From contig CAWFPR010000013.1 of assembly GCA_963817635.1 (NCBI GenBank), positions 156,740 through 220,739 of the forward strand: a stretch of 64,000 nucleotides of DNA. The letters are read 5' to 3'. Positions 10,106 through 56,965 of the stretch are shown here, piece after piece; position 1 is the first letter of the stretch, and each line of letters opens with the position of its first letter. Below the pieces are notes generated by a model. It did no database searches and was not told the origin of the DNA. It saw nothing but the letters and a program-made list of their open reading frames with translations. Origin of the DNA: an uncultured Acidobacteriota bacterium (GTDB lineage: Bacteria > Acidobacteriota > Vicinamibacteria > Vicinamibacterales > 2-12-FULL-66-21). Both the position numbers and the translations under genes were made by a program.

Positions 10106-10145
10106 AGACCGCTTGTTGGGCCGTGTCGGGCTGGTTGATCCTTCG

Positions 10146-10956
10146 ATGGATGAGGCCTGCATGGACGACAGAGTCTCGGACGAGATGTTCGACCTGTCCG
10201 GCCGCGTCGCGGTCGTCGTCGGCGGGACGAGCGGCATCGGCCGGGCGCTCGCGCTCGGACTGGCCGACGCCGGGCGCCGACGTCGTGGCGACGGGGCGCC
10301 GGCAGGAGCTCGTCGCCGAGGTCGCGCGGCGCGATCGAGCGGCGAGGACCGGCGGACGGCTGCGAATGGCCGTCTGATGTCGGCGACCCGGCGTCGCTCG
10401 AGCGGCTGCGCGATGCGTGCCTGGCGCAGCTCGGCCGGCGTCGACATCCTGGTCTGCGCCGCCGGCCTGACCAAGCGGGTGCCCGACGCTCGAGATGGCC
10501 GAGCCGACTGGACGCGGATCATCGAGACGAACCTGACCGGGCGTCTGCGGCGCCTGCCGGGTGTTCGGGCGCCGATGGTGAAGCGCGGCAGCTGGCCGCA
10601 TCATCACGATCGCCTCGCTGTCGTCGTTCGTCGGGCTGTTCGAGGTGGCGGCCTACACGGCGAGCAAGGCCGGCGTCGCCGGCCTGACGCGGGCGCTGGC
10701 CGTCGAGTGGGCGCTCGCACGGCGTCAACGGTCAACGCGATCGCCCCGGGCGTGTTCAGGACCGACCTCAACGCGCGCCCTGCTCGACTCGCCGCGCGGC
10801 CAGGAGTTCCTCATGCGCACGCCGATGGGCCGGTTCGGCAGGCTCGAGGAGCTGGTCGGCGCGGCCGTGTTTCTCGCCTCGGACGCCGCGTCGTTCGTCA
10901 CCGGCCACCTGCTCGCCGTCGACGGCGGCTTCCTCGCGAGCGGGGTCAACCAGTGA
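10146..10956 (+). pseudogene. short-chain dehydrogenase/reductase (KduD/gluconate-5-dehydrogenase-like), frame-broken
   Basis: MFDLSGRVAVVVGGTSGIGRALALGLADAG; ADVVATGRRQELVAEVA (other frame); VDILVCAAGL; AAYTASKAGVAGLTRALAVEWA (YxxxK); NAIAPGVFRTDLN; FLASDAASFVTGHLLAVDGGFLASGVNQ, stop at 10954-10956. Confidence 0.75.
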
Positions 10957-12469
10957 AAGCCGTGCCCTGGTCATCAGCGACCGCGACAACGTCGCGACCG
11001 CGCTCGAGCCGCTCGAGGCGGGCCGCCGCGGTCGAGGGATCGCGGGAGCGACCGTCGAGGCGCGTCGAGCCGATTCCGCCCGGCCACAAGATGGCGCTCG
11101 AGCCGATTGCCGCCGGCGCAGCCGGTCGTGAAGTACGGCAGCCCGATCGGCCTCGCCACCTGCGACATCGCGCCGGCGACGCACGTGCACACGCACAACG
11201 TGGCGAGCGGCCGCGGCCGCGGCGATCTCGCCGTCCGGCCGACGCCGCCTGCGATCCCAGGCGACCCGGACGCGGCGCGCGAACGATGAGCGACCCGGCC
11301 CGGCTTCCTCGGCTATCGGCGCCCGACGGGCGCGTCGGCACCCGCAACCACGTCCTGGTCGTGCCGACCGTCATCTGCTCGGCGGTCGTGGCGAGCGGAT
11401 GCCGCGGCTGTCGACCGCCGCTCTGTGCCGCGCTGCCGCACCTGGCCGGCTGCGGGCAGCTCGGGCCGGACATGCGCCTGACCCACGAGACGCTGGCCGC
11501 CTACTGCGGCCACCCGAACGTCGGCGCGGTCCTGGTCGTGGCGCTCGGGCTGCGAGCAGGTGGTCGCGCAGAAGCTGGCCGAAGCCGCGGCGCAGCACGG
11601 CAAGCCGGCCGCGATCACTCGCGATCCAGGCCGAGGGCGGCACCGTCGCGGACGACGGCGGCCGGGATCGAGATCGCGCGATCGATGGCGGCCGGGCTCG
11701 ACGGCGCAGCAGCGGGCATGGTGCGACGTCTCGGAGCTCGTCCTGTCGCTCAAGTGCGGCGGGTCGGACTACACCTCGGGGCTCGGCGTCGAATCCGGCC
11801 CTCGGCCGGGTCGCCGATCGCCTCGTCGATCTCGGCGGCACCGCCGTGCTCGGCGAGATCGCCGAGATCATGGGCGCCGAGCACCTGCTGGCGGCGCGCG
11901 CCACGCGTCCGGACACGTCGGACCGCCTGCTCCACGTCATCAACCCGCGTCGAGCTGGAGGCCCGCGGCCTCGGCCTCGACATCCGCGGCACCCAGCCGT
12001 CCCCGGGCAACATCCGCGGCGGTCTGACGACGATCGAGGAGAAGTCGCTCGGCGCCACGCACAAGGGCGGCGAGCACGCCCGCTCGACGACGTCGTGCGG
12101 CTACGCCGCGCCGATCGCGGCGAAGGGCCTGACCGTGATGGACACACCCGGCCTCGACGTCGAGTCGGTCACCGGCATGGTCGGTGGCGGCGCGCAGGTC
12201 GTCGTGTTCACGACGGGCCTCGGCACACCGACGGGCAATCCCATCGCGCCGGTCATCAAGATGACCGGCAACGCCCGGACGGCGAGGCAGATGGCCGACA
12301 ACATCGACCTCGACGTCAGCGGCATCATCGAACGAACACGGAGACGCTCGACGCAGGCCGCCGATCGCCTCTTCGCGTCGATGCTCGCCGTGGCGTCCGG
12401 CAAGCCGACCGCGGCCGAACGCTCGGCCACCGCGAGTTCGCCATCCACCGGCGCAACCCGACGATCTGA
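10953..12469 (+). pseudogene. uxaA: UxaA-family altronate/galactarate dehydratase, frame-broken
   Basis: SAF-domain start LVISDRDNVATALEPLEAG..PPGHKMALEPIAAG..VVKYGSPIGLATCDIAPATHVHTHNV. Then DGRVGTRNHVLVVPTVICS, PHLAGCGQLGPDMRLTHETLAAYCGHPNVGAVLVVALG, SLKCGGSDYTSGL, GLTVMDTPGLDVESVTGMVGGGAQVVVFTTGLGTPTGNPIAPVIKMTGN. Tail GHREFAIHRRNPTI, stop at 12467-12469. Confidence 0.75.
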
Positions 12470-27254: not shown

Positions 27255-29875
27255 TTACTCGTGCTGGAGGATCGCGAGTGGATTCAACCGTGCGGCATGC
27301 CTGGCAGGCCACAGGCTCATGGTGAGCGCGACGGCACCGAGAAACGCGTTGACGATCAGCAGGTTCGTCAGCGTAAAGAACACATGCGAAGTGCCAAAGA
27401 GTCGCTCCCATACGAACGTCAACAGGCATCCTGCCGCGGCCCCGTAAGTGACCCGTCGCGCAGCGTCCCGCAAGATGAGCGCCGTAACCTGCTCGGGTTG
27501 ACTTCCCAGCGTCATGCGGATGCCGATCTCGTGGCGGCGCTGTGCCACGGCGTGCCACGTAAGCGAGGAGAGGCCGCCGGCCGACAGGCCGAGCGCGATC
27601 AACGCGATCGCGGTGATGAGGACTTCCGACACGCGGGCGTTCCACGTGAGGTTCCAGACGGCCTCCTCGTACCAGCGCACCGCGTATGTCGCGAGCACCG
27701 GGTCGATTTGGCGAATCGCCTCGCGAGCCGCATCGATGACCGGCGTCATAGGGCCCCGCGCGCGAATGAAGACGATCGGCGCCTGGCCCGACAGCGTCCA
27801 GATCGGCACATACGCGACCGGGACAGGCCGGGGCGTGCCCTGGCCGATGGTACGGGAGATGCCCACGATGGTGAGCCAGGGCCCGCTCGCCTCGTCGCCC
27901 TGCGAGAGCGTGATGCGACGGCCGATGGGATCGGCGCCCGGAAAATACGCGCGGGCGAAGTGCTCGTTGACAATCGTGACCGGGTGGCCGGGAAGACCGT
28001 CCTGCGCGGTGAAAGGCCTTCCCTCAACCAGCGGTATCCCCAGGGTGTGGAAGTATCCCGGGTCGACACCGACTGCTGGAATCGACGGCGCGGCAGCCTT
28101 GCTTCCGTCGCGCCCCTCGATGGCCAGTTTCAGCGCAGCGGCGCCGGCGCCCGGCATCGTCGTTGCGACCCCGACGGCGGTGGCGGACCGAATCGACTGC
28201 AGCGCCTCGCGCAGCCTTCCGAACAGCGCCCGCCGCTCCAACGGTGACGTGTGACCGGGCGGCAGCGCGAGGCGCATCGTCACGATTCCCGTGCCGTCGA
28301 TCGGCCATCCTCGGTCCGCATTCAGGAAGACCCGCAGGGTACCGGCGACCGAGCAGAGCAGCATCACGCTGACAGCCAGTTGCGCGGTCAGCAGCGCCGT
28401 GGTCCAGCGCCGCGTTCTCCGGCCGGAACTGGCGCCTGCGCCCGACATCGCGAGAGGCGCGATCGTGTTACGGCCCACGGTGTGAAGGGCTGGCGCCAGC
28501 CCGGACAGAAGCACGGTCCCGACGCATGCCAGCGCGAGCATGGCGATCACGCGGCCGTCCATCGTGTACTCGATCCAGTACGGGAGCCCGCCGTCCGGGA
28601 TGGCGCTGCTGAACACGCGCAGACCAATGGCAGACAGGAACAGCCCGATTGCGCCGGCACACGCCGCGAGCAGCGCACCTTCCACCAGCACCTGCCTGAC
28701 GAGGCGCGCCCGGGACGCTCCAAGCGCGCGGCGGACAGCCATCTCCCGCTCACGGCGGACGGAACGCGCCAGCATGAGGTTGGCCACGTTGAAGCACGCG
28801 ATCATCACCAGCAGGACTCCGACCGTGAAGAACGCGAGCCACACGCGGCTGGTGAGCTTCCCGTTGAAGACCTCGTTGATCGGCGAGACTTTCAACTGGA
28901 TGGGCGCTTCCTCCGACGGCGGAGATCCAACCTGTGCGTCCAGCCCAAGGCGTGTCAGTTCCTCTTCCGCCTGCTGGCGGGTGATGTCCCGGGCCGGCAG
29001 CCCAATCGCCTCGATGGAGCGCGCCGAGGATGCTGCACCCTGGCGGGCGGGGCCCTGCGCCAGGGCAAGCCAGACGTCGGCATTATCGGGGAACCTGAAC
29101 TGGTGGCGGAGCACGCCGACGATCACGGCGCGAGCGCCGGCAACCTGCACCGGCGTGCCAAGGACGGCGGGATCGCGGTGATAACGCGCGTTCCACAGTG
29201 ATTCGCCTATCAGTACCACCGGCTGGGCGCCGGCCCTGTCGTCGTCGGCTTGCAGTCCGCGTCCGGTACCGGCTGCTCACTCAAGAGGGGCAGCGTTGCT
29301 GGCGACACGTAGGCGATTGTCACCCGGTCGGCTGGCATCGCGTCGTCGATCAGCACGCCCGCCGTGCTTTCGAAGCCCGCAACTGCCTCCATTGTGCCGG
29401 CGGATCGGACGGCGTCGAATTCCGCAAGCGTGAGCGGCCGATCCTCGCCCTTCGGGTTGGTCGACGCAACGTAGAGCAGCCTCGCGGCGTGCTCGACAGG
29501 CAGGCCCCGGATGCAGTGCGCATTGACGATGGTGAAGAGCATGTTGTTCACGCCGATCCCCAGCGACAGGACGACGACGGCGCTGATTGACAGCGCGCGC
29601 TCCTTCCGAAGCAACCGAAGCGCGTACCGGCAATCCTGCGCGATCTCGTGCGCGAGCCGGGTGCCGCGTGCGTCCCGACACTGCTCCTTCACCTGCTCGA
29701 GCCCGCCGAATTCGAGACGGGCCTGGCGTCGCGACTCGTCGGGAGAGAGGCCGGCGCGCATCTTCTCGGCGACAAGTTCCTCGTAGTGGAACCGCAGTTC
29801 GTCGTCCAGTTCGCGTTCGAGCCGGTCGCGGCGCCAGAACGCCGCCACCAGGTCATGACGGGTCCCCTTCGGCAA
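27255..29875 (-). CDS. ADOP-type duplicated FtsX/MacB-like permease (frame switch(es) near 29220-29280)
   Basis: N-terminus RRDRLERELDDELRFHYEELVAEKMRAGLSPDESRRQARLEFGGLEQVKEQCRDARG and the first TM are in ORF 29210-29875. The periplasmic domain and two FtsX-type 4-TM modules are in ORF 27255-29219, ending ARLNPLAILQHE. Confidence 0.8.
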
Positions 29876-30198
29876 TGGCGAAGAACAACCGCATCGCTTC
29901 CGACAGGCGTGCCCAGTTCTCCGTGTGGGTCTTCAGCTGCACGCGCCCCTTTTTCGTGATTCGGTAGAACTTGGCGTCTGCGGCCCGTCTCCGTTTCGCG
30001 CCAGTCGGCGGCGAGTAGCCTTCGATTCTCCAGCCGATGAAGGGCGGGATAGAGCGAGCCCTGCGGCACCTGGACGACGCCGCCCGAGATGCGGCGCATC
30101 CGCTGGGCCAGCGCATACCCGTGGATCGGGCCCAGCGTGGCGACCTGGAGGATCATCAGATCGAGAGTGCCCTGGGGGAGGTCGGATCGGTCTGTCAT
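29853..30198 (-). CDS. PadR-family transcriptional regulator (one frame switch near 29990)
   Basis: [70 protein letters not shown]. After the switch: AKFYRITKKGRVQLKTHTENWARLSEAM. Confidence 0.8.
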
Positions 30199-38917: not shown

Positions 38918-39955
38918 ATGTGGCGCCGCGCGCTCGTGATCGTCGTGGCCGTCGGGGGCGCCGTGCCCGCCGCGGCCCAGGTCCGGAGCGACGAACGGGT
39001 CGAGGTGGCGCGGGTCCTGGTCGACGCGAGGGTGACGGATAGGCAGGGACGGCCCGTTCGCGACCTGCGGGCCGCCGATTTCCAGGTGGAGATCGACGGT
39101 AGCGCCGCGCCGGTGGAGTCAGCGACGTGGATCGGCTACGCGTCCTCCACTCTCGGCGCCGGCTCCGACGGGGCGGTTACGTCCACGCCGGCCGCGGTGA
39201 GCCCGGCCCAACCCGGCCGGTTGACCGTCTTCATGTTTCAGCACAGCCTCGAACGGTCCAGGATCGGCGGGATGCTCCAGATGATGCACGAGTCCGCCCG
39301 ATTCGTCGATCGGCTTGGGCCGTCCGACCGGGGGGCCGTGGTTGTTTTCGACTCGCGCCTGCGCGTCTGGCAGGATTTCACGACCGACCGGGTGCGGCTG
39401 TCGGAGGTGCTGGGGCGGGGCATCCTGTTCGAGCGTCCGGACGAGGAACCGGCGCCGGGGGTTTCGCTCGTGGCCTCCCTGGACCGCGACGCCGCCGAGC
39501 ACGCCGCCAGCATGGAGGAGGCGCTGCTGGTGGTCGCGCGGGCGCTGCGGCCGATCGAGGGCGCCAAATCGCTGGTGATTTTCGGACACGGTTTCGGCTC
39601 GTTCACCCCCCTGGCCGGCTCGCCGACCGGGATGGCCCTCCTGGGACCCGACTACGAAGCGGCGCGCGAGGCCCTGATTGCCGCGCGCGTCACGGTCTTT
39701 GCCTTGGATATCACCAACGCCGACAGCCACACGCTCGAGGGCGGGTTGATCGCGGCAGCCGAGGATACCGGCGGGTTCTACGCCAAGGTCAATATTCAGC
39801 AGGCGGCGGCGATGGACCGGCTGGAGGGAGCACTCGACGGCTACTACCTGCTGGCCGTCGAGCGCCCGGCGACCAGCCGCGGACGTCACGACATACGGGT
39901 CAGCACGACCGTCTCGAAGGCGACCGTCTCGGCGCGGCGGTACTACGTTGACTGA
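38918..39955 (+). CDS. VWFA-related acidobacterial-domain protein (secreted von Willebrand A-like)
   Basis: [21 protein letters not shown], then [37 protein letters not shown]-like core [39 protein letters not shown], and tail [16 protein letters not shown]. Confidence 0.75.
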
Positions 39956-40229
39956 CACCTACGCGTACCACCAGCAGATCCTGGACGAACTCGCGCGTCA
40001 TGGGTTGACGCCGGCACCCACGAGTTCGCCACAGCGGCTGCGCGATGCGGTCCGGGACCTCTACAAGTACCAAATCCGCCGTCTCCGGGACGCGTATCTT
40101 GCCGGGGCCTTTCCGAAGCCGGAGTTCGCCGGCCGGGTCATCGAGCTTCGCAAGCGTTACTGGCTGTTGTCCATTCCGACCGAATTGTGGCTGCTGCCCG
40201 CCGTGCCAAAGCCGCCGGCGGCGAGATAG
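39948..40229 (+). CDS. hypothetical 93-aa protein, translationally coupled between the VWA gene and the ATPase
   Basis: TTG 39948 overlaps the VWA stop (39953-39955). Protein-like, helix-prone sequence [67 protein letters not shown]. It ends 9 nt before ATG 40239. Confidence 0.5.
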   Translation: MTDTYAYHQQILDELARHGLTPAPTSSPQRLRDAVRDLYKYQIRRLRDAYLAGAFPKPEFAGRVIELRKRYWLLSIPTELWLLPAVPKPPAAR

Positions 40230-40238
40230 GATCCGTGG

Positions 40239-42653
40239 ATGCAGGATATCGAGAAGCTGGGGCTGTTCTACCTCGGTCGCGAGTACGATCTGGCCGCGGG
40301 CACACGTCTCGAGGCACCCGTGCTGTACGACTCGCGCGACCTGGTGACTCACGCGGTCTGCGTCGGGATGACGGGGAGCGGCAAGACCGGTTTGTGCCTC
40401 TCGCTGATCGAGGAAGCCGCCATTGACGGCGTTCCAGTGATTGCCATCGATCCCAAAGGCGATCTGGGCAATCTCCTCCTCACGTTTCCGTCGCTCGCCC
40501 CGGCCGACTTCGCGCCGTGGGTGGATCCGGACGAGGCCCGCCGGGCCGGGACGACGCCGGCGGCGTACGCGGCGGACCAGGCCGAGACGTGGCGAAAAGG
40601 AATCGCCGACTGGGGCCAGGATCCCGCCCGCATCGAACGGCTCAGGGCTTCGGCCGATTTCGCCATCTACACGCCCGGCAGCCGCGCGGGTCTTCCGGTC
40701 TCGGTCCTCAGTTCGTTCGCGGCCCCAGAGCCCGCGCTCCGCGACGATCCCGAGATGCTGGCCGAGCGCGCCGGCGGGACGGCCACGAGCCTCCTGTCGC
40801 TCGCCGGCGTGGACGCCGAGCCCCGCAGCCGTGAGCACACGCTCATCGCCTCGCTCCTGGCCGCAGCCTGGAAGGAGGGGCGCGATCTCGATCTTGCGAC
40901 GCTCATTCAGCAGGTGCAGGCTCCTCCGTTCAACCGGCTTGGCGTGGTCGACCTGGACTCGTTCTTTCCACAGAAAGACCGGTTCGAGCTGGCGATGCGC
41001 TTCAATGCGGTCCTGGCGGCGCCAGGCTTCGACCAGTGGTTCGACGGCGAGCCGCTCGATCCGTCGACGCTGCTGTACACCGCCGAGGGCCGGCCGCGTG
41101 TCGCCATCCTGTCGATCGCGCATCTTGGCGACGCCGAGCGGATGTTCTTCGTGTCGCTCCTGCTGAACCAGATGGTTGCCTGGATGCGCGTCCAGAGCGG
41201 CACGTCGAGCCTCCGCGCGATCCTCTACATGGACGAGATCGCGGGCTACTTTCCGCCGGTCGCGAATCCGCCGTCCAAGCCGCCGCTGCTCACGCTGCTC
41301 AAACAGGCCCGGGCGTTCGGCCTCGGGGTCGTCCTGTCCACGCAGAATCCCGTGGATCTCGACTACAAGGGGCTGGCCAACACCGGAACGTGGTTCCTCG
41401 GGCGCCTGCAGACGGAGCGCGACAAGGCCCGCGTCCTCGACGGGTTGCAGGGCGCCGCGGCGGGCGGCCTGGATCGGGCCGAGGCCGATCGCATCCTGTC
41501 GGCGCTCGGCAAGCGCACGTTTCTCCTGCACAACGTGCACGAGAAGGGCCCGGTCGTGTTCCAGACCCGCTGGACGCTGTCGTACCTGCGCGGACCGCTG
41601 TCGCGCGACCAGATACGCGCACTGATGGCGGAGCGGGCTGATCGGCGTCCGGCCCCCGCGGAGCGTTCAGGGAAAGAAGACAACCCTGAGAAGAGTGCTG
41701 CGCCCCAGGGGAAGGACGTGCGTCCGCCTCAGTCCGGTCCGGGGGGCGAAGGGTACGGCGGAGCGCCGATCGTTCCTCCAGGCATTCAGCAGGTCTTCAT
41801 CCCGGATGGCGGCGATGCGCCGGTCTACACGCCGGTCGTCATCGGCGCGGCCCGGGTGGCCTTCGCCGATGCCGCACTGGGCGTCGACACGTCGCGCGAC
41901 GTGGTCTACGTCGCCCCCGTCGCCGACGGCGCGGTACCGGTGGACTGGGCGCAGTCGTCGCGGCTCGACGTGGCGCCCGGCGCGCTCGGCAAGGCGCCGG
42001 CTGGCGGCGCGAGCTTCCTCACGGTGCCGCAGGCGGCGCTTCAGCCCAGGAGCTTCGCCGTCTGGCAGAAGGCGCTCGCGCAATACCTTGCGCAGGCCGA
42101 GAAGATCGAACTCCTCAGGCATGGCCCGACCAGGCTGACGTCGAATCCAGGGGAGTCGGAGCGTGACTTCCGCATCCGGCTGAAGGATGCGATGCGATCG
42201 GCGCGCGACGAGGCGGTCGAGGCCGTCCGCCGGAAATATGCCTCACGGCAGGCCGCGCTCGCCGACAGGCTCCGGCGGGCGCAGGGGGTCGTGGAGCGTG
42301 AAGCGCAGCAGGCGTCGCAGCAGAAGCTGCAGACGGCCGTCTCTTTCGGCGCCACCGTCCTTGGCGCGCTCTTCGGCCGCCGCGCCGTGTCCACCGGCAC
42401 GCTCGGCCGGGCCACCACCGCGGTGCGCGGAGTCGGGCGCTCGATGAAGGAAAGCTCCGACGTCAGGCGCGCGTCCGAAGGCGTCGAGGCCGTGCAGGAA
42501 CAGGTCAGGGATCTCGAGGACAGCATCCGTCAGGAGACGCAGGCACTCGTCGCCGAGTTCGACGCGGTTCCGGCGCTCGATCGCGTGACACTTGCGCCTC
42601 GCCGCGGACAAATCACCGTGCAGTTCGTCGCGCTGGGCTGGGATCCGCGGTGA
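40239..42653 (+). CDS. HerA/FtsK-superfamily P-loop ATPase (DUF87-like) with long C-terminal coiled-coil-like tail
   Basis: THAVCVGMTGSGKTGLCLSLIEEAAIDGVPVIAIDPKGDLGNL (Walker A), RAILYMDEIAGYF (Walker B), GLGVVLSTQNPVDLDYKGLANTGTWFLGRLQTERD. A low-complexity linker (aa ~470-500) and a charged helical tail (RRKYASRQAALADRLRRAQGVVEREAQQASQQKLQ). Confidence 0.8.
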   Translation: MQDIEKLGLFYLGREYDLAAGTRLEAPVLYDSRDLVTHAVCVGMTGSGKTGLCLSLIEEAAIDGVPVIAIDPKGDLGNLLLTFPSLAPADFAPWVDPDEARRAGTTPAAYAADQAETWRKGIADWGQDPARIERLRASADFAIYTPGSRAGLPVSVLSSFAAPEPALRDDPEMLAERAGGTATSLLSLAGVDAEPRSREHTLIASLLAAAWKEGRDLDLATLIQQVQAPPFNRLGVVDLDSFFPQKDRFELAMRFNAVLAAPGFDQWFDGEPLDPSTLLYTAEGRPRVAILSIAHLGDAERMFFVSLLLNQMVAWMRVQSGTSSLRAILYMDEIAGYFPPVANPPSKPPLLTLLKQARAFGLGVVLSTQNPVDLDYKGLANTGTWFLGRLQTERDKARVLDGLQGAAAGGLDRAEADRILSALGKRTFLLHNVHEKGPVVFQTRWTLSYLRGPLSRDQIRALMAERADRRPAPAERSGKEDNPEKSAAPQGKDVRPPQSGPGGEGYGGAPIVPPGIQQVFIPDGGDAPVYTPVVIGAARVAFADAALGVDTSRDVVYVAPVADGAVPVDWAQSSRLDVAPGALGKAPAGGASFLTVPQAALQPRSFAVWQKALAQYLAQAEKIELLRHGPTRLTSNPGESERDFRIRLKDAMRSARDEAVEAVRRKYASRQAALADRLRRAQGVVEREAQQASQQKLQTAVSFGATVLGALFGRRAVSTGTLGRATTAVRGVGRSMKESSDVRRASEGVEAVQEQVRDLEDSIRQETQALVAEFDAVPALDRVTLAPRRGQITVQFVALGWDPR

Positions 42654-42673: not shown

Positions 42674-43366
42674 TCAGATTTCGCGCCTGTCGCGGCCGTC
42701 CGTGTGGCCGGCGAAGTCGCTGCCGCCGGGCGACACGACCGTGATGGTTGTGGTTGTCTCCTGGCGCCACCCCGACGCGAGCAGCCACAAGCCGGCGAGG
42801 TACAGGGCGACCGTGAGCATGGCCACGTAGCCCGTTGCCGCGGAGTGGGGCTGATAGTCAATCGCACCCAGGCTGACGCCTTCGAGCAGCAGCGTCAGCA
42901 GCCGCTTGGCGGTCCCGGTCGCCGGCGCATACAGTGTTTCCAGCACGACCCACCGCAGGACCAACGCTCCGGTCAGCAGTACGCCGAGGCTCCGCAGCAG
43001 TTGCCGTGGGCCGCTGGTGCCCGCCATCGTCGTCAGGATCTGGATGAAGAAGAAGGTGATGAAGAGGACGTGCAGCAGTCCTGTCTCCGGAACCACCACG
43101 TTGAACACCTGCGCCGAGGCCGTCAGCAGCGACACGATGACGACGGTGCCGGACGCGTTCTCGAGGGCCGCACGGTGGCCGTTGACGAGGCGCCCGGTGA
43201 CCAGGACACCGCCGCGCGCCAGAGTCCCGACGAGCAGCACACCGAGGACCACCACGACCAGCGACGGCGTCAGCCACGCCACGCGCGCGTCGAGCCGCAG
43301 ACCACCGAGGAGCGTGGCCGTCAGGAAGAGCCCCGGAAGAACGAGCGCCTCGCGGACAGTCGTCAT
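42674..43366 (-). CDS. hypothetical polytopic membrane protein (about 6 TM)
   Basis: Intact 230-aa hydrophobic ORF. Its ATG shares an ATGA overlap with the stop of the upstream gene (43363-43366). Confidence 0.6.
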   Translation of the reverse strand: MTTVREALVLPGLFLTATLLGGLRLDARVAWLTPSLVVVVLGVLLVGTLARGGVLVTGRLVNGHRAALENASGTVVIVSLLTASAQVFNVVVPETGLLHVLFITFFFIQILTTMAGTSGPRQLLRSLGVLLTGALVLRWVVLETLYAPATGTAKRLLTLLLEGVSLGAIDYQPHSAATGYVAMLTVALYLAGLWLLASGWRQETTTTITVVSPGGSDFAGHTDGRDRREI

Positions 43367-43851
43367 TTCCGGCGCCGGAACACTTTCAGCGGATTGAAGT
43401 CGGAGGGCTCGCGCGTCACGCCGCGCGTGAGCTCTGCTTTCAGTTCGTCGGCGGTGTGCATCTCGATCGCCGGGTCATCGACCACGATCCGGTGATCCGG
43501 CGCGACCGCAATCGCGCGGTCCACGGCCTCGAGGCCTTTCGTGAACAGGGCGTCGTCGCTGTAGAGCCGTCCCCACCCCTGGCGGTAGTAGCTGTAGGCG
43601 ATGTAGAACTGCGCCCGCGCGTCGCGGTGTGCCGGGTCTGCCCGATCGAACGCCGCGCGCGCTTCGAGAAACGCATCACGGTGGAAGAACGCCAGGCCGT
43701 CCTGCATCGCCTGCTCGTTGATGCTGTAGGCCCCAACGCCGGAAGACAGCCCGCCTGTCACCTCGGCGACCGTCTGGGGCTGCGCGGCGTACAACCAGAC
43801 GATGAGCGCGGCGTAGAGAATCGAGAGGACAAGCCCGGCTGCACGGACCAT
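43363..43851 (-). CDS. membrane-anchored TPR-like protein
   Basis: N-terminal TM MVRAAGLVLSILYAALIVWLYAA, then a helical repeat-like region (FLEARAAFDRADPAHRDARAQFYIAYSYYRQGW..GLEAVDRAIAVAP). Confidence 0.55.
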   Translation of the reverse strand: MVRAAGLVLSILYAALIVWLYAAQPQTVAEVTGGLSSGVGAYSINEQAMQDGLAFFHRDAFLEARAAFDRADPAHRDARAQFYIAYSYYRQGWGRLYSDDALFTKGLEAVDRAIAVAPDHRIVVDDPAIEMHTADELKAELTRGVTREPSDFNPLKVFRRRK

Positions 43852-43890
43852 CGTTCCACCAGTGTAGCGCTGGTGGGCCCCGTGCGCGTG

Positions 43891-45144
43891 TCAGCGGAGA
43901 TCGAGGGCGACGATCTCTTTCTCGTTGCGGACGAAGAGCGTCGTCCCGCTGAGCGTCGGGACCGTCCAGGAGCGGCTGTCGAGGATTTGAGCCTTGGCCT
44001 GCAGCACCAGGCCGGTGTCGCCCGGCGTGGCGATGGCCAGGTTGCCGTCCTCGTCGAGGAGGATCAGCCGGGATCCCGCGCCCACGAGCGTCGCGCGGGC
44101 CACGCTCCGGTCGCGCCACGCCATGTCGCCGGTGCCGACGTCGATCGCGGCGAGCGGGGCCGAGCCGAAGTCGCCGTTCGAGGCAAAAATCCGCTGCCCG
44201 AAGCGCACGGCGTTGCCGAAGTGAATCCGGATGCGTTTGTTCGCCCAGACCTCGGTGACCGACACCGTCGATCCGCTGCGCCCGAGCTTCAGCACGCGGC
44301 TGCCGCCGTTGTACGCCGACGAGACGAACAGCAGGTGGTCGTCTCCCCAGATCGGCGTCGCGACGTTGACGCCGGAATCCGCCGGGTGCGGCTGTTGCCA
44401 CTCGAGCTGACCGGTGTCGGGATCGAGGCCCGAGATCTCGCCGTACGTGAAGACCACGAGTTCGGGACTTCCATCGAGGTCGATCAGAATCGGCGACGAA
44501 TAGCCGTTCTCGAAATCCTGCGTCTCCCAGGCGACCGCGCCTGTCGCCGCGTCGATCGCCACCACGCCGCGCCCCTTGCCGCCGACGGTCGTGATGATTC
44601 GATCCTTGTAGGCGAGCGGGCTCGACGAATAGCCGCAGGCCCGCACCGAGTCGTGGGCTCCCGCGAGCAGGTCGCGCGTCCACTGGAGCGTGCCTGTCCG
44701 GCGATCGAAGCTGTGCATCAACCCGCCGGCGCTCACGGTGACCAGGCGATCGCCGGCCACGAGCGGGGCGGCGCGCGGGGCGGGTCCGAGCTGCTGGGAA
44801 CAGGTTTCGTTGAACGGCGCCGCATACCGCGTTTCCCACGTCGTCCTGCCGGTCGCCGCCTCCATGGCGATCACGACATCGTCGTCGCCGCTCCGATAGA
44901 GCGTGTAGAGCGTGATGCCGTCGGTGACAATCGACGAGAAGCCGTCGCCTAGGGGACGGCGCCAGATCTGTCGCGGTCCGCCGTCCGGCCAGCTCGTCGC
45001 GAGCGGGGGCGCCTCGACGACGAAGTTGCGATGCGGTCCTCCCCACTGGAGCCAGGCGGTCGACCCGACAGGGGCGGGCGCCGGTCCATGACCACCAGTC
45101 AGTGCGAGCGCGGCCGTCATCGCCAGCGCCGCCGTGACGTTCAT
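43891..45144 (-). CDS. PQQ-like/BamB-like beta-propeller repeat protein, secreted
   Basis: Signal MNVTAALAMTAALALTGG, then repeated ..G..W......S.P...D..... blades (e.g. TGRTTWETRY, TGTLQWTRDL, TGAVAWETQD, TGQLEWQQPH, TGDMAWRDRS). Confidence 0.75.
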   Translation of the reverse strand: MNVTAALAMTAALALTGGHGPAPAPVGSTAWLQWGGPHRNFVVEAPPLATSWPDGGPRQIWRRPLGDGFSSIVTDGITLYTLYRSGDDDVVIAMEAATGRTTWETRYAAPFNETCSQQLGPAPRAAPLVAGDRLVTVSAGGLMHSFDRRTGTLQWTRDLLAGAHDSVRACGYSSSPLAYKDRIITTVGGKGRGVVAIDAATGAVAWETQDFENGYSSPILIDLDGSPELVVFTYGEISGLDPDTGQLEWQQPHPADSGVNVATPIWGDDHLLFVSSAYNGGSRVLKLGRSGSTVSVTEVWANKRIRIHFGNAVRFGQRIFASNGDFGSAPLAAIDVGTGDMAWRDRSVARATLVGAGSRLILLDEDGNLAIATPGDTGLVLQAKAQILDSRSWTVPTLSGTTLFVRNEKEIVALDLR

Positions 45145-46259
45145 TTCCCGTCTCCCTTCGGCGCGGCGAACAGGGCGGGATCGACCGCCTGGTCGATCGC
45201 GATGGTGTCGATCCTGGCGGTGCGGAAGCTGTCGGGTGTGCCGTCGAAGAGCGCGCGGATGTCGTAGGGCAGCAGCAGGCCGCCGGTCTGGCGATAGTCG
45301 CCGAACACGAGCGTGTACTCGCCGATCTCCGCGTTCATGTTGCGGCCCGTGAAAGCGAGGCTGTGGACGCGGCCGGAGGCCGGGTCGATCCCGAGAGTCA
45401 CGTCCACGAACCCGTTCTGAATGCGCACGCGATCGACAGGCTTGCCCGCGATCGTCTGACGGTCCAGGGCCGCCGCCTTGAACTCAGGCCCTTTCCGCGA
45501 CCGGAGCAGCGGGACCAGCGTCCGCCCGTACTCCGCTTCACTCGTCAGGCGCGCCGTCGGATTCTGCGGAAACACCCGGTCGGGGCCGCCGATGAACCAG
45601 GCGCCATCGGTCGTGACGAGCATCGCCGATGTCTGCGACCGCCCCGGCATGGACATCGTGCGCTCGGAACGGATGTCGCCGGGAAAGCGCCACGTGGTTT
45701 TCGTGGAAACGGACACGGTCATCGTGCCGCGGACCTGCTCCTGCGTGATTTCCTCGCCGTAGGTCTTGATTGTGTCGAGCTTCTCCGCGCCGCCGAGCGC
45801 GGCAACGGCGCGCTCGACCAGCGCGCGTCCGTCCGCGAGCGCCGTCGCGCCGTCCGGCATGGCGGGCACGGGCCTGGGCATGAACTTCGCCGGGGCCGCC
45901 ACGAACTTCTTGTGGCAGTCGTCGCTGCCGAAGATGTAGATCTTGCCGTCCACGACGGCGAAGTCGGAAGGATTGCCGCCCACGCCCGGTCCCATCCGGG
46001 CGCACGCCCCGTCCATCTGGATCTCGTAGCGCGCGGGATCGCGCTCGAACGTCGCCTTGCTTTCCGGCGTGGCGAACAAGTACGTGAACTTCCCGCGAAC
46101 GACCTTCAGGTCCGGCTTGCCGGACACTTCCTGTCCCTGAATCAGGAGCACGGGATCGACGCCGTCGAGCGCCTCGACAGCCGCCCCCTGCTGCGCCTGG
46201 GCGGTCATCGAAAGCGCCGCAACAGCGAACATGCCGGCCGCGAGCAGGTGGTGCTTCAT
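45141..46259 (-). CDS. secreted protein: YHS-like N-terminal domain plus LolA/LppX-like C-terminal region
   Basis: ATG 46259, MKHHLLAAGMFAVAALSMTAQA. LDGVDPVLLIQGQEVSGKPDLKVVRGKFTYLFATPESKATFERDPARY..MDGAC..VVDGKIYIFGSDDCHKKF is YHS-like. Only the last 372 codons of the 1137-codon ORF look coding. Confidence 0.6.
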   Translation of the reverse strand: MKHHLLAAGMFAVAALSMTAQAQQGAAVEALDGVDPVLLIQGQEVSGKPDLKVVRGKFTYLFATPESKATFERDPARYEIQMDGACARMGPGVGGNPSDFAVVDGKIYIFGSDDCHKKFVAAPAKFMPRPVPAMPDGATALADGRALVERAVAALGGAEKLDTIKTYGEEITQEQVRGTMTVSVSTKTTWRFPGDIRSERTMSMPGRSQTSAMLVTTDGAWFIGGPDRVFPQNPTARLTSEAEYGRTLVPLLRSRKGPEFKAAALDRQTIAGKPVDRVRIQNGFVDVTLGIDPASGRVHSLAFTGRNMNAEIGEYTLVFGDYRQTGGLLLPYDIRALFDGTPDSFRTARIDTIAIDQAVDPALFAAPKGDGK

Positions 46260-46309
46260 ATCGCCTCCTTCATACCCTCGTACCCTTTTCCATTTCCCAT
46301 TGGCGTTGC

Positions 46310-48943
46310 CTACCCCACGCGCAACGCCACCATCGGATCGACCGACGCCGCGCGGCGCGCGGGCAGGAAGCAGGCGAGCGACGCCACCGCCACCAGCACC
46401 ATCGAGACCGCGAGATAGGTGAGCGCGTCGGTCGGCTGGACGCCGAAGAGCAGCGTCGAGAGCACCCGCGTGAGGACGAGCGCGCCGGCGAGGCCGATCG
46501 CTAGCCCGGTCAGCACGAGCTGGAACCCCTGGCCAAGGACCATCGCGACGACGTTCGCGCGCTGCGCGCCGAGGGCCATCCGGATGCCGAACTCCTGCGT
46601 GCGCTGGTTGACCGACAGCGCGATGACGCCGGCAATCCCCGTGGCGGTGATGACCAGCGCCAGCAGCGCGAACAGGCCGAGGAGCGCGGCAGTGAGGCGG
46701 GGAGGCTGGAGCGAGGCGGCCCGCACCTGCGCGACCGTGCGGAAATGGTCGACGGGCTGATCGGGATCGATCGATCGCAGCGCGGCGCGGATCTGCCGTT
46801 CCATCACGGCCGGGTCGATGTTGCTGCGCACGAGCCAGTTGGTCGACAGCTGCCGGCCCTGGAACATCGGCACGTACACCTCGTCGCGCGCCGGCTGGTC
46901 GAGGCGCTGCAGCGTGTCGCCGACGACACCGACGATGGTGCTCCAGTTGTCGTCGCCATTCGAGATCCGGCGTCCCACGGGATCCTGATCCGGCCAGTAG
47001 TGCCTCGCCATCGTGCGATTGATGATGGCCACCGGGTGGTCGCGACCGCTGTCGGCCGGCGTGAAGGGCCGTCCGGCGACAATCGGCTGGCCGATCGCGG
47101 AAAAGTAGTCGGGCGAGGCGACGTGATAGTCGACGCGCGGCTGCCCTGCATCGTCGGGCATCTCGCGTCCCTCGATCCTGAATGTGCCGGCGAATACATT
47201 CTGATCGTTGAGCGGGAACGTCCCGCCGCCGCCGACGCCGAGTACGCCGGGTTCGGCGCGCAGGGTGTCCTCGAAGCGCTTCCAGAAGGCCGGAATCGCA
47301 TCGTCCCGGTACTTCGAGAAGTTCAGGTCGATCCGCATCGTCAGAAGGTTGTCGGTCTCGAAGCCGGGATTGACCCGCTGAAGGTTGATGAGGGTGCGGA
47401 TCGTCAGGCCCGCGCCGATCAGCAGCATGAACGAGGCTGCCACCTGTACGACGATCAGGACGCTGCGGACGCCGTTGGTGGCATGCGTCGTGCGCGACCC
47501 GTCGCGGGCGCCGGCGCTGGTATCGAATGCGCCGGTGAATGCCGGGACCGCGCCGAACACCAGGCCGGTCGCGACCGACAGGATGATGGTGTAGGCGAGG
47601 ACCATCCGGTCGATGCTGACCTCCGCCGCTCGCGTCGTGAACCGCTCGGCGAAGGCGACCAGGAGATCCACGCCCCAGCCGGCGAGTGCGAGGCCAATCA
47701 GTCCGCCGGCCAGCGCGAGGAGCGTGCTCTCGGTGAGCAGCTGGCGAAGCAGCCGCCCGCGGCTGGCTCCGAGGACCGATCGGATCGCGATCTCCCGTTC
47801 GCGGCGCACCATGCGCGCCACCGTCAGGTTCGCGACGCTCGCGCAGACAATGAGCAGCACGAAGGCGGCCGTGCCGAGCAGGACGAGGAGTGTCGCGCGG
47901 AACGATTGCGTCAGTTCTTCCTGCAGCGGCACGGCGGCCATCCGGTAGCCGTCCGCCTCCCGGTAGTATTTCGGGTAGCGCGCCTGCAGCCCGGCGGCGA
48001 CCAGGTTCAGATCGGCGCGCGCTTTTTCGAGCGTGATTCCGGGCTTGATGCGCCCGAACGCCTGCATCATGCGCGCGTCCCGCGCCTCGACCATCGCGGG
48101 GTTCGATCGGAACGGGCACGCCGAGGTCGGCATGTACACGTCGACCTCGCGCGGATACTGCGGCACGGGAGGCAGGATGCCGACTACCTGGTGCGGCCGA
48201 TCGTTCATCCGGAAGATCCGGCCGACGACCGACGGATCCCCGCCAAAGCTGCGCTGCCAGTATTTGTAGCCGAGCACGAGCACCGCGGGCGCGCCGGGCG
48301 CGTCGTCGGCGTCCACGAAGGTCCGGCCGTACAGCGGCCTGACACCCATGACGTCGAAGAAGCCCGCCGACACGACGCCCGTGGACACCCGCTCTGGTTC
48401 GGGACGCCCCAGGAGGATGAACCACATGTCGTGGAATTCGACGACGCCGTCGAGGCTCTCCGCCTGCCTGCGGTAGTCCAGGATCTCCTGGTACGAGAAG
48501 CCGGTATCGTTGACACCCGCGAGGGGCCGCTGCTGATGGAGCACGACCAGCCAATCGCCGCTCGCGTACGGCAACGGACGCAGCAGCACACCATTGACGA
48601 CGCTGAAGATGGCGGTGTTGGCGCCGATGCCCAGCGCCATCGTGACGATGACCATGACGGCGTAGCCGGGGTTGCGCCTGAGGTTTCTCATGCCGTAGCG
48701 CACGTCGTGCGCCACGGCCTCGACAACGCGCGACAGCCAGGTGTCCCGCACGTTGTCCTTCACCTGGGCCACGCTGCCGAACGCGCTCAACGCCCGCCTC
48801 CGCGCCTCCTCCGGCGCGAGTCCCGCGCGCACGTGCTGCTCGGTCAGCATGTCGACGTGAAAGCGCAGCTCCCTGTCGAGATCCGCTTCCATCCGATCGC
48901 GCTGAAGCAAGGAGGCGATTCGGGTCCTGAGACGCCGGAGCAT
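46310..48943 (-). CDS. ADOP-type duplicated FtsX/MacB-like permease, intact
   Basis: ATG 48943, MLRRLRTRIASLLQRDRMEADLDRELRFHVDMLTEQHVRAGLAPEEARRRALSAFGSVAQVKD. Two FtsX 4-TM modules, ending RRAASVDPMVALRVG. No frame break. Confidence 0.85.
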   Translation of the reverse strand: MLRRLRTRIASLLQRDRMEADLDRELRFHVDMLTEQHVRAGLAPEEARRRALSAFGSVAQVKDNVRDTWLSRVVEAVAHDVRYGMRNLRRNPGYAVMVIVTMALGIGANTAIFSVVNGVLLRPLPYASGDWLVVLHQQRPLAGVNDTGFSYQEILDYRRQAESLDGVVEFHDMWFILLGRPEPERVSTGVVSAGFFDVMGVRPLYGRTFVDADDAPGAPAVLVLGYKYWQRSFGGDPSVVGRIFRMNDRPHQVVGILPPVPQYPREVDVYMPTSACPFRSNPAMVEARDARMMQAFGRIKPGITLEKARADLNLVAAGLQARYPKYYREADGYRMAAVPLQEELTQSFRATLLVLLGTAAFVLLIVCASVANLTVARMVRREREIAIRSVLGASRGRLLRQLLTESTLLALAGGLIGLALAGWGVDLLVAFAERFTTRAAEVSIDRMVLAYTIILSVATGLVFGAVPAFTGAFDTSAGARDGSRTTHATNGVRSVLIVVQVAASFMLLIGAGLTIRTLINLQRVNPGFETDNLLTMRIDLNFSKYRDDAIPAFWKRFEDTLRAEPGVLGVGGGGTFPLNDQNVFAGTFRIEGREMPDDAGQPRVDYHVASPDYFSAIGQPIVAGRPFTPADSGRDHPVAIINRTMARHYWPDQDPVGRRISNGDDNWSTIVGVVGDTLQRLDQPARDEVYVPMFQGRQLSTNWLVRSNIDPAVMERQIRAALRSIDPDQPVDHFRTVAQVRAASLQPPRLTAALLGLFALLALVITATGIAGVIALSVNQRTQEFGIRMALGAQRANVVAMVLGQGFQLVLTGLAIGLAGALVLTRVLSTLLFGVQPTDALTYLAVSMVLVAVASLACFLPARRAASVDPMVALRVG

Positions 48944-48957
48944 GTGCACCCTCCGAT

Positions 48958-49284
48958 CTACGTCGACAGCACGCGGGCCACGGCCGCCGACAGCCGCTCC
49001 CAGTTCTGCGTCTCTTCGGTCAGCTGTTTTCTGCCGGCTCTGGTGAGCTGGTAGAACTTCGCCTGGCGGTTGTTTTCGGAGTTGCCCCACTCGGCCTCGA
49101 CGAGGCCCTGCTGCTCCAGGCGGTGGAGTGCCGGATACAGCGATCCCTGGTTGACCTGCAGCACTTCTTCGGAAACCTGCTGGATGCGCAGCGCGATGCC
49201 CCATCCGTGCATCGCGCCCGGGGCGAGAGTCTTGAGAATCAGGAGGTCCAGCGTTCCCTGGAGCAGATCGGATTTTTGCGACAT
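48958..49284 (-). CDS. PadR-family transcriptional regulator
   Basis: ATG 49284, [88 protein letters not shown]. Confidence 0.9.
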
Positions 49285-50739
49285 GAGCTCTCCTGTAGAC
49301 GAACGACAAGAGAGTACGGTTCCGTCCTGTAGGTTGTCAAGGGAAAGACGCGATGACGGGTGGGACGAGCGGTGGGACTGGCGCGCGCCGCCGGCGGCGT
49401 GTCCGGGCACCCTGGCGCACATCATGCTGTGGGCGGTGATGCCCTCCGGGTACATGAACCGGCGCCCGGCCAACCACGACAGCGCCGCGAGGACGGCTCC
49501 GTACTCCACGAGCATCACGACCGCCGGGACTTTCCACGGACCTCTCAGCGCTGGCACGTACCACACGAGGTACACCGGCAGGATGCTGAAGGTCCACACG
49601 AGGAGCGGCAGCGTCATCCTCGAAAAGAGAAACGGCGTGAGGTAGAGCAGATACCACGGGTAGATGACGGGCGCGCCCGCGAGTGCCACCGCCATCGGCC
49701 ATGCCCATGCGCCGGGTTCATCCGCGCCCCGGCGCCATCGCCACCACGCCGATACGAGCAGGCCCAGGCCAACCGCTGTCGCCGCCGCGGCCGCTGGCGT
49801 CGCCAGGAACGCGATGGCGCTGAACAGCGGTCCGTTGAACCGGATATGCGCCACGACGTTCGGCACGGCGCCAAGCGGCATCGTGCCGCCCCGCGTGAAC
49901 GGCAGATACAGAAAGACGAAGAGCGCGACACCGAACAGGGCATCGCGTGCCCTGACGCGGCCCACGTAGAGCGGGATCAGCACGATCGGCAGCAGCTTCG
50001 TGGCGACGGCAAGGACGAGGGCGACAACGGACAGCGCCGTGCGCTTGCGCGCGAGCCAGTACGCGGACGCCGTGATCCACAGTGCGCCGACGACATCGAC
50101 GTGCCCGCTGTGCGCCACTTCGAGGACGACGAGGGGGTTCCACGCATAGGCCACCGCCAGCCACTCGTTCCGGCCCGTCGCGACCAGCCAGCGCCACAGT
50201 ACGATCATCGTCAGCAGATCGCAGAAGACGAGCGCGGCTTTCATCGCGCCCGACGAGTCGCGGAGGCTGACGACCAGGCGGAAGAACAGCTGCGCTCCGG
50301 GCGGGTACGGTGTGGCCGCCCGGCGGCTCGGCATCTCGCGCGTCTCGTCGTTGTGGGTGGAGGCCATCGCCGGATCGGCCGGTCTGACGGCGTAGGGGTT
50401 GTAGCCGAGCACCTGCACGCGCCCGTCCCACACGTAGCGCATCATGTCGCTGTCGCGACCGACAGGAGCCGCCGCGAGCGGCAGGCGAATGGCGACCGCG
50501 ATCGCGAACGCCCCGTACAGCAGACGACGCGATGCAGGAGGACGAACCCAGATACGCCGGAGCACCAGCAGGTACGCGAGGGCCATGACCGCGGCCATCG
50601 CAAAGAACAACGGCGAGCCGAGCGGCGCCCGCGAGACCGCGAGCGTGACGCTCGCCAGAACAGAGGCGGCACCCGTTGTAAGCAGGACAGACGAAAGGGA
50701 CTGCATCTGAGGGGCAGTTGGATTATAAATGACCTTCAC
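49285..50739 (-). CDS. GT87/DUF2029-like polytopic membrane glycosyltransferase; 3' boundary undefined (no in-frame stop before padR)
   Basis: About 12 TM segments. Motifs [59 protein letters not shown]. Protein-like sequence fades near 49450. An alternative start is ATG 50706. Confidence 0.6.
49311..49340 (-). promoter_or_regulatory. sigma-70-type promoter candidate for the padR-ADOP operon (TTGACA-18-TACTCT)
   Basis: Minus-strand TTGACA (49340-49335), 18-nt spacer, TACTCT (49316-49311). The direct repeat CTACAGGA occurs twice around it. Confidence 0.5.
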
Positions 50740-56857: not shown

Positions 56858-56965
56858 GGTTCTTATCTCTCCCGGTTTATCGGGCAGGAAGTAGCACCTG
56901 GGCATCAGCGCCTGGTTGCTGTGGCTTCGACGGGCCTGTTCCCTCAGCCACTCTGGATAAGCGTC
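56858..56965 (-). promoter_or_regulatory. SAM-I (S-box) riboswitch
   Basis: Minus-strand RNA: CUUAUCCAGAGUGGCUGAGGGAACAGGCCCGUCGAAGCCACAGCAACCAGGCGCUGAUGCCCAGGUGCUACUUCCUGCCCGAUAAACCGGGAGAGAUAAGAA. It matches the S-box core (CUUAUC.AGAG.GG..GAGGGA..GGCCC..GAAGCC.CAGCAACC...GGUGCUA..UCC.GC...GAUAAG). It lies about 60 nt upstream of hom ATG 56800. Confidence 0.9.

Follow-up and report, generated by a model that had tools for sequence, protein, structure and literature searches.

A shared promoter motif links a PadR-ADOP gene pair to a secreted YHS/LolA-like and propeller protein pair in the Vicinamibacterales

INTRODUCTION

Few gene families of soil Acidobacteria have expanded as much as the ADOP permeases. 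A literature search on this duplicated orphan permease, judged by titles, found no paper titled on ADOP. Here, we analyzed an ADOP gene together with its neighbors, a run of six minus-strand genes between positions 42674 and 49284 of a 64,000-nt stretch of DNA (the window) from an uncultured Acidobacteriota bacterium (contig CAWFPR010000013.1). The run starts with padR and the ADOP gene and continues with the genes for a secreted YHS/LolA-like protein (P3), a propeller (P4), a TPR-like protein (P5), and a six-transmembrane protein (P6).

The closest described systems are the PadR-ADOP pairs of Acidobacteria (TIGR03433/TIGR03434). The window pair passes both family cutoffs well and shares the gene order, with padR followed after 14 nt by ADOP, as well as the permease architecture, a duplicated MacB_PCD plus FtsX arrangement headed by a perm_prefix_1 domain, and the lack of an ATPase gene next to it. 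It differs in that the window copy precedes the secreted P3-P4 pair behind the same promoter, while P3-P4 also carry the operator motif in other contexts. A second likeness is to the LolCDE-LolA and MacB-type systems. Type VII ATP-binding cassette (ABC) permeases, the MacB type, act on periplasmic or outer-leaflet substrates. As in those systems, a MacB-homologous permease is encoded next door to a periplasmic protein of LolA fold. Unlike them, the locus lacks a LolD/MacB-type ATPase and MacA/TolC partners, and P3 is not a LolA member by sequence; the LolA-like domain is fused to YHS and paired with a propeller, and its association with the permease is facultative.

In Proteobacteria, clusters of DUF1302, DUF1329, a BNR propeller, and a resistance-nodulation-division (RND) exporter are cofit (Price et al., bioRxiv 10.1101/072470). 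The logic is the same, namely, a LolA/LolB-like periplasmic protein with a beta-propeller and a large inner-membrane transporter, and a DUF1329 structure, 4z48, ranks near the top when the fold of P3 is compared (E = 6e-8). However, the transporter is of the RND type there and of the MacB type here, the propeller belongs to BNR/Ycf48 there and to PQQ_2 here, the DUF1302 outer-membrane barrel has no counterpart here, and the YHS domain is an addition. In the FetMP-FetABCDEF iron uptake cluster of Campylobacter jejuni, a periplasmic YHS-domain protein occurs with an ABC transporter and thioredoxin-like proteins (PMC10783030). This is echoed by P3, which adjoins ADOP here and DsbD or VKOR-DsbA elsewhere, although FetA is an eight-transmembrane protein with DUF2318, whereas P3 is a soluble YHS-LolA fusion. 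The FetBC permeases are of the FtsX/MacB type, a classification that the paper on the Fet cluster does not state. Finally, the N-terminal domain of P3 aligns with the YHS (seleno)proteins (NF041384) over 100 of 113 model positions and has the first Cys, in GG-x-C-A, in common with them, but these short proteins have neither the second Cys nor the Met of P3, nor its LolA-like domain. In kind, the locus is akin to PadR-ADOP pairs and to LolA-like/propeller/transporter modules.

Comparison of related loci shows that padR-ADOP, P3-P4, and P5-P6 are three units that separate independently. We lean slightly toward a reading in which padR-ADOP-P3-P4 form one PadR-controlled operon with a thiol/metal-handling P3-P4 pair, and P5-P6 are an independent pair.

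RESULTS

Gene structure of the locus

A preliminary description of the window had reported six intact minus-strand open reading frames (ORFs) with short gaps or overlapping start and stop codons. Their coordinates and overlaps were confirmed, and all six ORFs are full length when set against homologues.

49284-48958, minus strand: padR, the lead gene, 108 aa, member of an acidobacterial PadR paralogue family
48943-46310, minus strand: ADOP, 877 aa, 14-nt spacer from padR, GGAGG 8 nt before the ATG
46259-45141, minus strand: P3, 372 aa, secreted, 50-nt spacer from ADOP
45144-43891, minus strand: P4, 417 aa, secreted, ATGA (4-nt) overlap with P3
43851-43363, minus strand: P5, 162 aa, 39-nt gap from P4
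43366-42674, minus strand: P6, 230 aa, ATGA overlap with P5

The arrangement is found again in related genomes and is thus more than chance. The earlier domain calls also hold for PadR, ADOP, YHS, the PQQ propeller, and the six-transmembrane protein, and for the LolA-like domain at the level of fold; the TPR call is backed by weak matches only (see below). Rfam gave no match within the six-gene region, nor did PADLOC for P3, P4, P5, or P6. A terminator scan of 42.4-49.7 kb returned three terminator-like sites, all on the noncoding strand and equal in number to the chance expectation. A stem-loop between P4 and P5 (CCACCAG...CTGGTGG) was considered as a terminator and rejected, its folding energy being that of shuffled sequences (z = 0.05).

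A conserved promoter and candidate operator precede padR

For comparison, we used approximately 40 loci encoding P3 relatives (labeled L), mostly from the Vicinamibacterales (Acidobacteriota), onto which the window proteins were mapped by tblastn and called-gene tables. The close homologues and the loci named below are from metagenome-assembled genomes (MAGs) of Vicinamibacterales unless stated otherwise.

The region around 49285-49345 had been pointed out as the place to seek a PadR operator, and a predicted operator and promoter were found there. The conserved noncoding block came to light on translating the tail of the upstream ORF. In an alignment of 18 loci, TTGACA, CtACAagA, TAnnCT, and cTTGTCG.tCGTCTA are invariant, and the consensus is cTTGACAatCTACAAGAgtGAACcgTAtgCTCTTGTCGaTCGTCTAcAGGAG. 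Our interpretation is that a -35 box and a TAnnCT -10 box, spaced by 18 nt, lie in this block and that TCTACARGA-type half-sites occur there in both inverted and direct orientation, as follows.

49340-49288, minus strand: conserved promoter and candidate PadR operator, directly 5' of padR, from comparative alignment
49340-49335, minus strand: -35 box, TTGACA
49333-49325, minus strand: half-site, CCTACAGGA
49316-49311, minus strand: -10 box, TACTCT
49312-49304, minus strand: inverted half-site, CTCTTGTCG
49299-49291, minus strand: half-site, TCTACAGGA, overlapping the padR ribosome-binding site AGGAGAG

As would suit a PadR-autoregulated operon, conserved inverted repeats of the TCTACARGA type coincide with the -35/-10 spacer and with the leader. 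The window contains the composite pattern a single time (0.1 expected), and the only two near-exact half-sites of the window both lie within the 49340-49288 element. A generic scan of 42.4-49.7 kb found no promoter-like site; the promoter came only from the comparative alignment.

Where padR-ADOP is present, it lies 5' of padR; where padR-ADOP is absent, it lies 35 to 50 nt 5' of P3, and the former padR Shine-Dalgarno sequence within it has decayed. At the same place, the distant locus L015 has ATCTACAGGA-N19-TCCTGTAGAT, a perfect 10-bp inverted repeat. In addition, three loci with P3-P4 in unrelated contexts (L085, L088, and L090) carry palindromes of the form TCTTGTAGAC-CG-TC[TG]ACA..., with the same half-site, 10 to 60 nt 5' of P3; in L085, four of the seven sites along 17 kb are clustered in 45 nt. 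We infer that PadR binds the TCTACARGA repeats and represses its own operon. P3-P4 would likewise belong to the regulon of this operator in the sampled Vicinamibacterales-type loci. In the Pyrinomonadaceae, the region 5' of P3 holds at most one weak, unconvincing half-site per locus. A search for a conserved element 5' of P5 in the compared loci showed nothing beyond a vague -10-like TAnnCT.

padR-ADOP, P3-P4, and P5-P6 are separable units

The lead position of padR stands, as does the placement of an orthologous padR-ADOP directly upstream of P3-P4, which recurs in about 13 of 31 informative loci (the window, L001-L003, L006, L009, L010, L014, L023, L027, L086/L087, L089, and the distant L015). 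The pair is absent from the other 18. Eight of these (L007, L008, L011, L012, L013, L016, L024, and L025) have a GT87-like gene directly before P3, and L085, L088, L090, and the Pyrinomonadaceae loci also lack the pair. In a neighbor-joining tree of P4, the GT87-adjacent loci without padR-ADOP form one clade nested among loci that have it, which argues for a single loss of padR-ADOP.

In at least eight relatives (L002, L007, L010, L012, L016, L025, L027, and a JGI contig), a PadR or PadR-ADOP paralogue on the opposite strand splits P4 from P5, and P5-P6 are missing from L009, L015, L085, L088, L090, and all Pyrinomonadaceae loci. These results bear on the preliminary description, in which the six genes form one PadR-led operon whose five downstream products are fixed envelope partners of ADOP. 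The genes do lie on the same strand throughout, with gaps of at most 50 nt or overlaps and no coding-strand terminator-like site, and the identical order is seen in L001, L003, L086, and L089. The wider synteny (Omp85, GT87, and HerA) is equally conserved, however, so that gene order within the Vicinamibacterales partly reflects shared descent. With P5-P6 detached or missing in many loci and padR-ADOP lacking from 18 of 31, the data do not uphold five partners as a fixed set, and a single six-gene operon appears highly improbable. Taken as a test of the operon, gene order thus fails the six-gene unit, whereas a four-gene unit, padR-ADOP-P3-P4, survives in this lineage.

Promoters and terminators between the genes were the other test proposed. 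In the window, the ADOP-P3 interval holds no operator half-site, promoter-like site, or coding-strand terminator-like site, and its 50-nt sequence is not conserved among relatives, which suggests one padR-ADOP-P3-P4 transcript; the same promoter abuts P3 itself in the clade without padR-ADOP. As a separate observation, the ADOP-P3 spacers of relatives hold short tandem repeats: approximately five copies of a ~35-nt unit in L027 (9705-10000), GGGCTTT in L086 (7896-8000), and GATCAGGA in L002 (9951-10000).

Alternatively, padR-ADOP could be a proliferating cassette that landed by accident behind the P3-P4 promoter, without any functional tie. A second padR-ADOP copy in the same 64-kb window, the 33%-identical paralogue that at least eight relatives carry as an insertion right after P4, and the ability of P3-P4 to work without the cassette in most lineages all favor such an accident, as does L088, in which P3 retains an operator of its own although it is preceded by a paralogous ADOP. 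On the other side, the ADOP next to P3 belongs to one orthologous group (53 to 87% identity, against ~33% for paralogues) that is retained from the Vicinamibacterales to L015. In the window, ADOP lies between the operator-bearing promoter and P3-P4, so that ADOP, P3, and P4 would necessarily be co-regulated. Moreover, the three genes decay together in L023: within 9045-11619 of this short-read MAG, ADOP, P3, and P4 all have large internal deletions and frameshifts, while padR, P5, a long form of P6, Metallophos, and HerA are intact. This joint decay fits a functional trio, albeit in a single MAG. We therefore regard an accidental arrangement as rather doubtful. From orthologue retention, the shared promoter, and the decay in L023, the link of ADOP to P3-P4 is taken to be real in this lineage, yet facultative.

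The second pair of the window (27255-30198, minus strand) is 51% (padR) and 31% (ADOP) identical to the first, and each of its genes is apparently split by a frameshift. Directly after it lies a 291-aa ORF (27245-26370) with a partial ABC_tran match; this second, "orphan" permease may have, or may have had, an ATPase neighbor.

P3 and P4 form a conserved secreted pair

P3 consists of a YHS-type domain (residues ~28 to 125), a helix, and a LolA-superfamily half-barrel (166 to 355). The AlphaFold2 model, with a mean predicted local distance difference test score (pLDDT) of 88 and a predicted template modeling score of 0.82, comprises an open barrel of 11 to 12 strands (pLDDT > 90), preceded by a small domain at the N terminus and a long helix. 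Foldseek placed the C-terminal half in the LolA superfamily (E = 7e-9 to 1e-4), matching 3bk5, LolA3, DUF1329, and NE2245, followed by LprG, LolA, and LolB; the probability is 1.0 for 3bk5, 9tp6, 4z48, 3buu, and LolA/LolB/LprG, at target template modeling scores of 0.5 to 0.6. Neither Pfam nor NCBIfam gave a LolA-type match for P3, and a PDB sequence search with a P3 profile returned spurious matches only. The LolA-likeness of P3 is supported by the modeled fold, not by sequence. Pfam YHS (PF04945) scores 34.5 bits over the whole protein (cutoff, 30.3), with no single stretch passing alone; PF04945 is precomputed for nearly all P3 homologues.

The motif C86-x-x-M89-G90 and C115 are invariant in all full-length P3 relatives, from Acidobacteriota and Planctomycetota alike, while H116 is specific to the Vicinamibacterales. 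Loop 87-93, next to C86, has a low pLDDT in the model, which would suit a flexible ligand site. Among 1.84 billion representatives searched with a profile, E ≤ 1e-30 was reached by at least 507 clusters at 50% identity for the P3 family, nearly all of 340 to 400 aa.

P4 matches Pfam PQQ_2 (115 bits), a generic repeat family only, and is far below the cutoffs for BamB (TIGR03300, 52.5 versus 285 bits) and PQQ dehydrogenase (TIGR03075, 47.8 versus 480 bits). In all acidobacterial loci where P3 is full length, the gene for P4 adjoins that of P3; the adjacency spans the Vicinamibacterales, Pyrinomonadaceae, Bryobacterales, and two MAGs labeled Clostridia, and L019 and L036 have the two genes in reverse order. 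Four of four related loci with checked gene calls retain the 4-nt overlap. Single-chain fusions of P3 and P4 are seen in two cluster representatives, P0369 (802 aa) and P0403 (653 aa); in them, a Pro/Ala-rich linker takes the place of the P4 signal peptide, and the propeller portion shares 48% identity with P4 (E = 3e-127). We regard this as speaking strongly for joint action of P3 and P4. A third candidate fusion, P0467, was discounted, its middle being frameshift-like low-complexity sequence. P3-P4 represent a large uncharacterized two-protein family, sometimes encoded as one fused protein.

Away from ADOP, the neighbors of P3-P4 or P3 include DsbD and an AhpC/TSA-TPR protein (L085), a VKOR-DsbA fusion (L088), a P-type (Cu-type) ATPase with YHS and HMBD domains (L090), and a CusCBA-type efflux system (L030). 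Because of these neighbors and the invariant Cys-x-x-Met and Cys, we consider thiol-dependent handling of a metal or metal-ligand complex in the periplasm plausible. Sequence pattern and neighbors together suggest a periplasmic Cys/Met site in P3 that has to stay reduced and that handles a thiophilic metal or a metal-ligand complex.

The fold of P3 also invites an explanation by lipid or lipoprotein trafficking, in which a LolCDE-like ADOP would hand an extracted acylated or hydrophobic molecule to the P3 barrel, with P4 as a docking scaffold and the cysteines as a structural element or redox switch rather than a metal site. The C-terminal half of P3 has a LolA/LolB/LprG/DUF1329-type fold, ADOP is homologous to MacB/LolCE-type permeases, and DUF1329 (LolA/LolB-like) is known to be cofit with a beta-propeller and an RND exporter in a cluster of Proteobacteria (bioRxiv 10.1101/072470). 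Against this, P3 has no sequence match to the LolA or LolA_like families, no ATPase gene is present, and lipid carriage alone leaves the invariant Cys/Met motif and the repeated metal efflux and thiol reductant neighbors unexplained. We consider lipid trafficking distinctly unlikely.

Divergently upstream of P3-P4, two Pyrinomonadaceae loci encode an HTTM/vitamin K carboxylase-like membrane protein (L021, 7971-9404; L018, 4684-6207).

The PadR-ADOP pair and a proposed scheme

The regulator matches Pfam PadR (E = 1e-21) and TIGR03433 (159.8 bits; cutoff, 101.8), and its identity across orthologous loci is 74 to 91%. Its stop codon at 48958 precedes the ADOP ATG by 14 nt. ADOP matches TIGR03434 over model positions 2 to 801 of 803 (918 bits; cutoff, 622.3) and NF038403 with 54 bits. 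In Pfam, two MacB_PCD and two FtsX domains are found in one polypeptide, hydropathy indicates transmembrane segments in a 1+3 and 1+3 pattern (~8 helices), and the C-terminal repeat matches MacB structures (5nik, E = 4.5e-16). The permease is an "orphan" in that no ORF within 42-50 kb has LSGGQ/Walker A motifs, and no ATPase, MacA, or TolC gene lies in 38-52 kb.

Its N terminus is a cytoplasmic perm_prefix_1 domain. Among six ADOPs compared (window, L015, L085, L088, L089, and L090), this domain is present in all four with an adjacent padR and missing from both without one; the latter (L088, 5438-7891; L090, 501-2948) lack the prefix of ~75 aa. This correlation hints that the prefix domain communicates with PadR.

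Taken together, the data can be arranged into the following scheme. Unit 1 (49340-43891) would be read from a single sigma-70-type promoter, with repeats in the spacer, -10 region, and leader, at which PadR would repress its own operon and so make ADOP, P3, and P4 one inducible set. P3 and P4 would be the stable core, a physical pair in the periplasm, to which P3 may contribute a Cys/Met/Cys site on a flexible YHS loop and a LolA-type hydrophobic cavity. ADOP, a predicted MacB/LolCE-type permease with two periplasmic domains, would be an optional membrane partner that passes on or receives the same cargo, and its cytoplasmic perm_prefix_1 domain probably couples the state of the permease to PadR. 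Going by the neighbors found elsewhere, the best-fitting cargo would be a thiophilic metal such as copper, or a metal-ligand or lipidic complex, with reduced cysteines taking part in its handling; a hydrophobic moiety could be accommodated in the LolA-type cavity. Unit 2 (43851-42674) would comprise P5-P6 as an independent, translationally coupled membrane pair that is merely downstream in this lineage. For this mechanism, that is, thiol-dependent metal or ligand handling with ADOP as an optional partner, our confidence is moderate to low. A tighter version, in which P3-P4 are the dedicated acceptor or donor for an ADOP that mechanically moves a thiophilic metal or metal-bound hydrophobic ligand between P3 and the membrane, and PadR senses the permease through perm_prefix_1, seems unlikely to us.

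Several observations weigh against the four-gene operon and its proposed role. We infer co-transcription of padR-ADOP-P3-P4 from spacing, the absence of signals, and comparative logic, and the ADOP-P3 spacer ranges from 14 to ~300 nt in relatives and holds a GC-rich hairpin in L009. The sequence upstream of the second padR of the window is just loosely similar to the operator. P3-P4 persist without a cognate ADOP in most lineages, so that ADOP is not needed for their core function. The eight proteins neighboring ADOP include no ABC_tran match as an ATPase partner. The YHS scores of P3 are marginal, and that against NF041384 (44.1 bits) is below the cutoff of 70. Each metal or thiol-redox context corresponds to one locus, and several comparison loci are long-read assemblies with frameshifts, which limits the inference of pseudogenes.

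If the tighter version is true, it would provide the first cargo, partner, and regulatory logic for any member of the very large ADOP family, as well as a novel family of periplasmic carriers that is widespread (at least 507 clusters at 50% identity). The locus offers a concrete handle on one ADOP orthologue, through the candidate operator, the correlation of padR with the prefix domain, and the co-regulated secreted pair. It also corrects the lead given by the preliminary description: P3-P4 are the pair to target, and P5-P6 should not be counted as ADOP partners.

P5 and P6 form an independent pair

P5 has one N-terminal transmembrane helix, by hydropathy, and a helical-repeat domain (AlphaFold2 pLDDT, 68) with weak fold matches to the TPR proteins YbgF and BamD (E ≥ 0.027) and no Pfam match. 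With 5,969 clusters at 90% identity, and 73 to 90% identity among the best 120 listed, it is far more conserved and more abundant than P3. P5 is always next to P6 and often detached from P4, and the ATGA overlap of P5-P6 is kept in four of four related loci with checked gene calls.

P6 shows six hydropathy peaks. Searches of Pfam and NCBIfam gave no match for P5, P6, or the long form of P6. Comparison that took in L003 (13076-14932), L010, L012, L023, L027, and L086 revealed two forms, a short one of ~230 aa and a long one of 590 to 618 aa with an extra soluble C-terminal region of ~420 aa; the long form is always accompanied by a neighboring Metallophos gene. On the P4 tree, the short form arose at least twice. 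That P6 is a truncated remnant was considered and rejected, since 104 clusters, mostly of 215 to 240 aa, mark the short form as a stable gene.

Flanking features of the window

Upstream of padR, the ORF of a GT87/MptA_B-like membrane protein (49285-50739, minus strand) lacks a stop codon and continues in frame into padR, so that the two nominally make up a single ORF of 593 aa (48958-50739). In relatives, GT87 and padR are separated by PspC and one or two other genes, of which the window holds an 18-aa PspC remnant alone, on the opposite strand (49394-49447, plus strand). The TGA that closes the GT87 frame in L001 and L002 is TGC in the window. The run-on may reflect either a deletion with stop loss or an assembly indel.

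On the other side, a HerA-like ATPase (804 aa) with weak PADLOC matches to mad8 and HerA is encoded at 38918-42653 on the plus strand, together with upstream genes for proteins of 345 and 93 aa, which are conserved and have no family match. This trio is syntenic across the Vicinamibacterales and converges on P6. Elsewhere in the window, at 56860-56963 on the minus strand, lies an S-adenosylmethionine riboswitch (RF00162; 80 bits, gathering score of 44).

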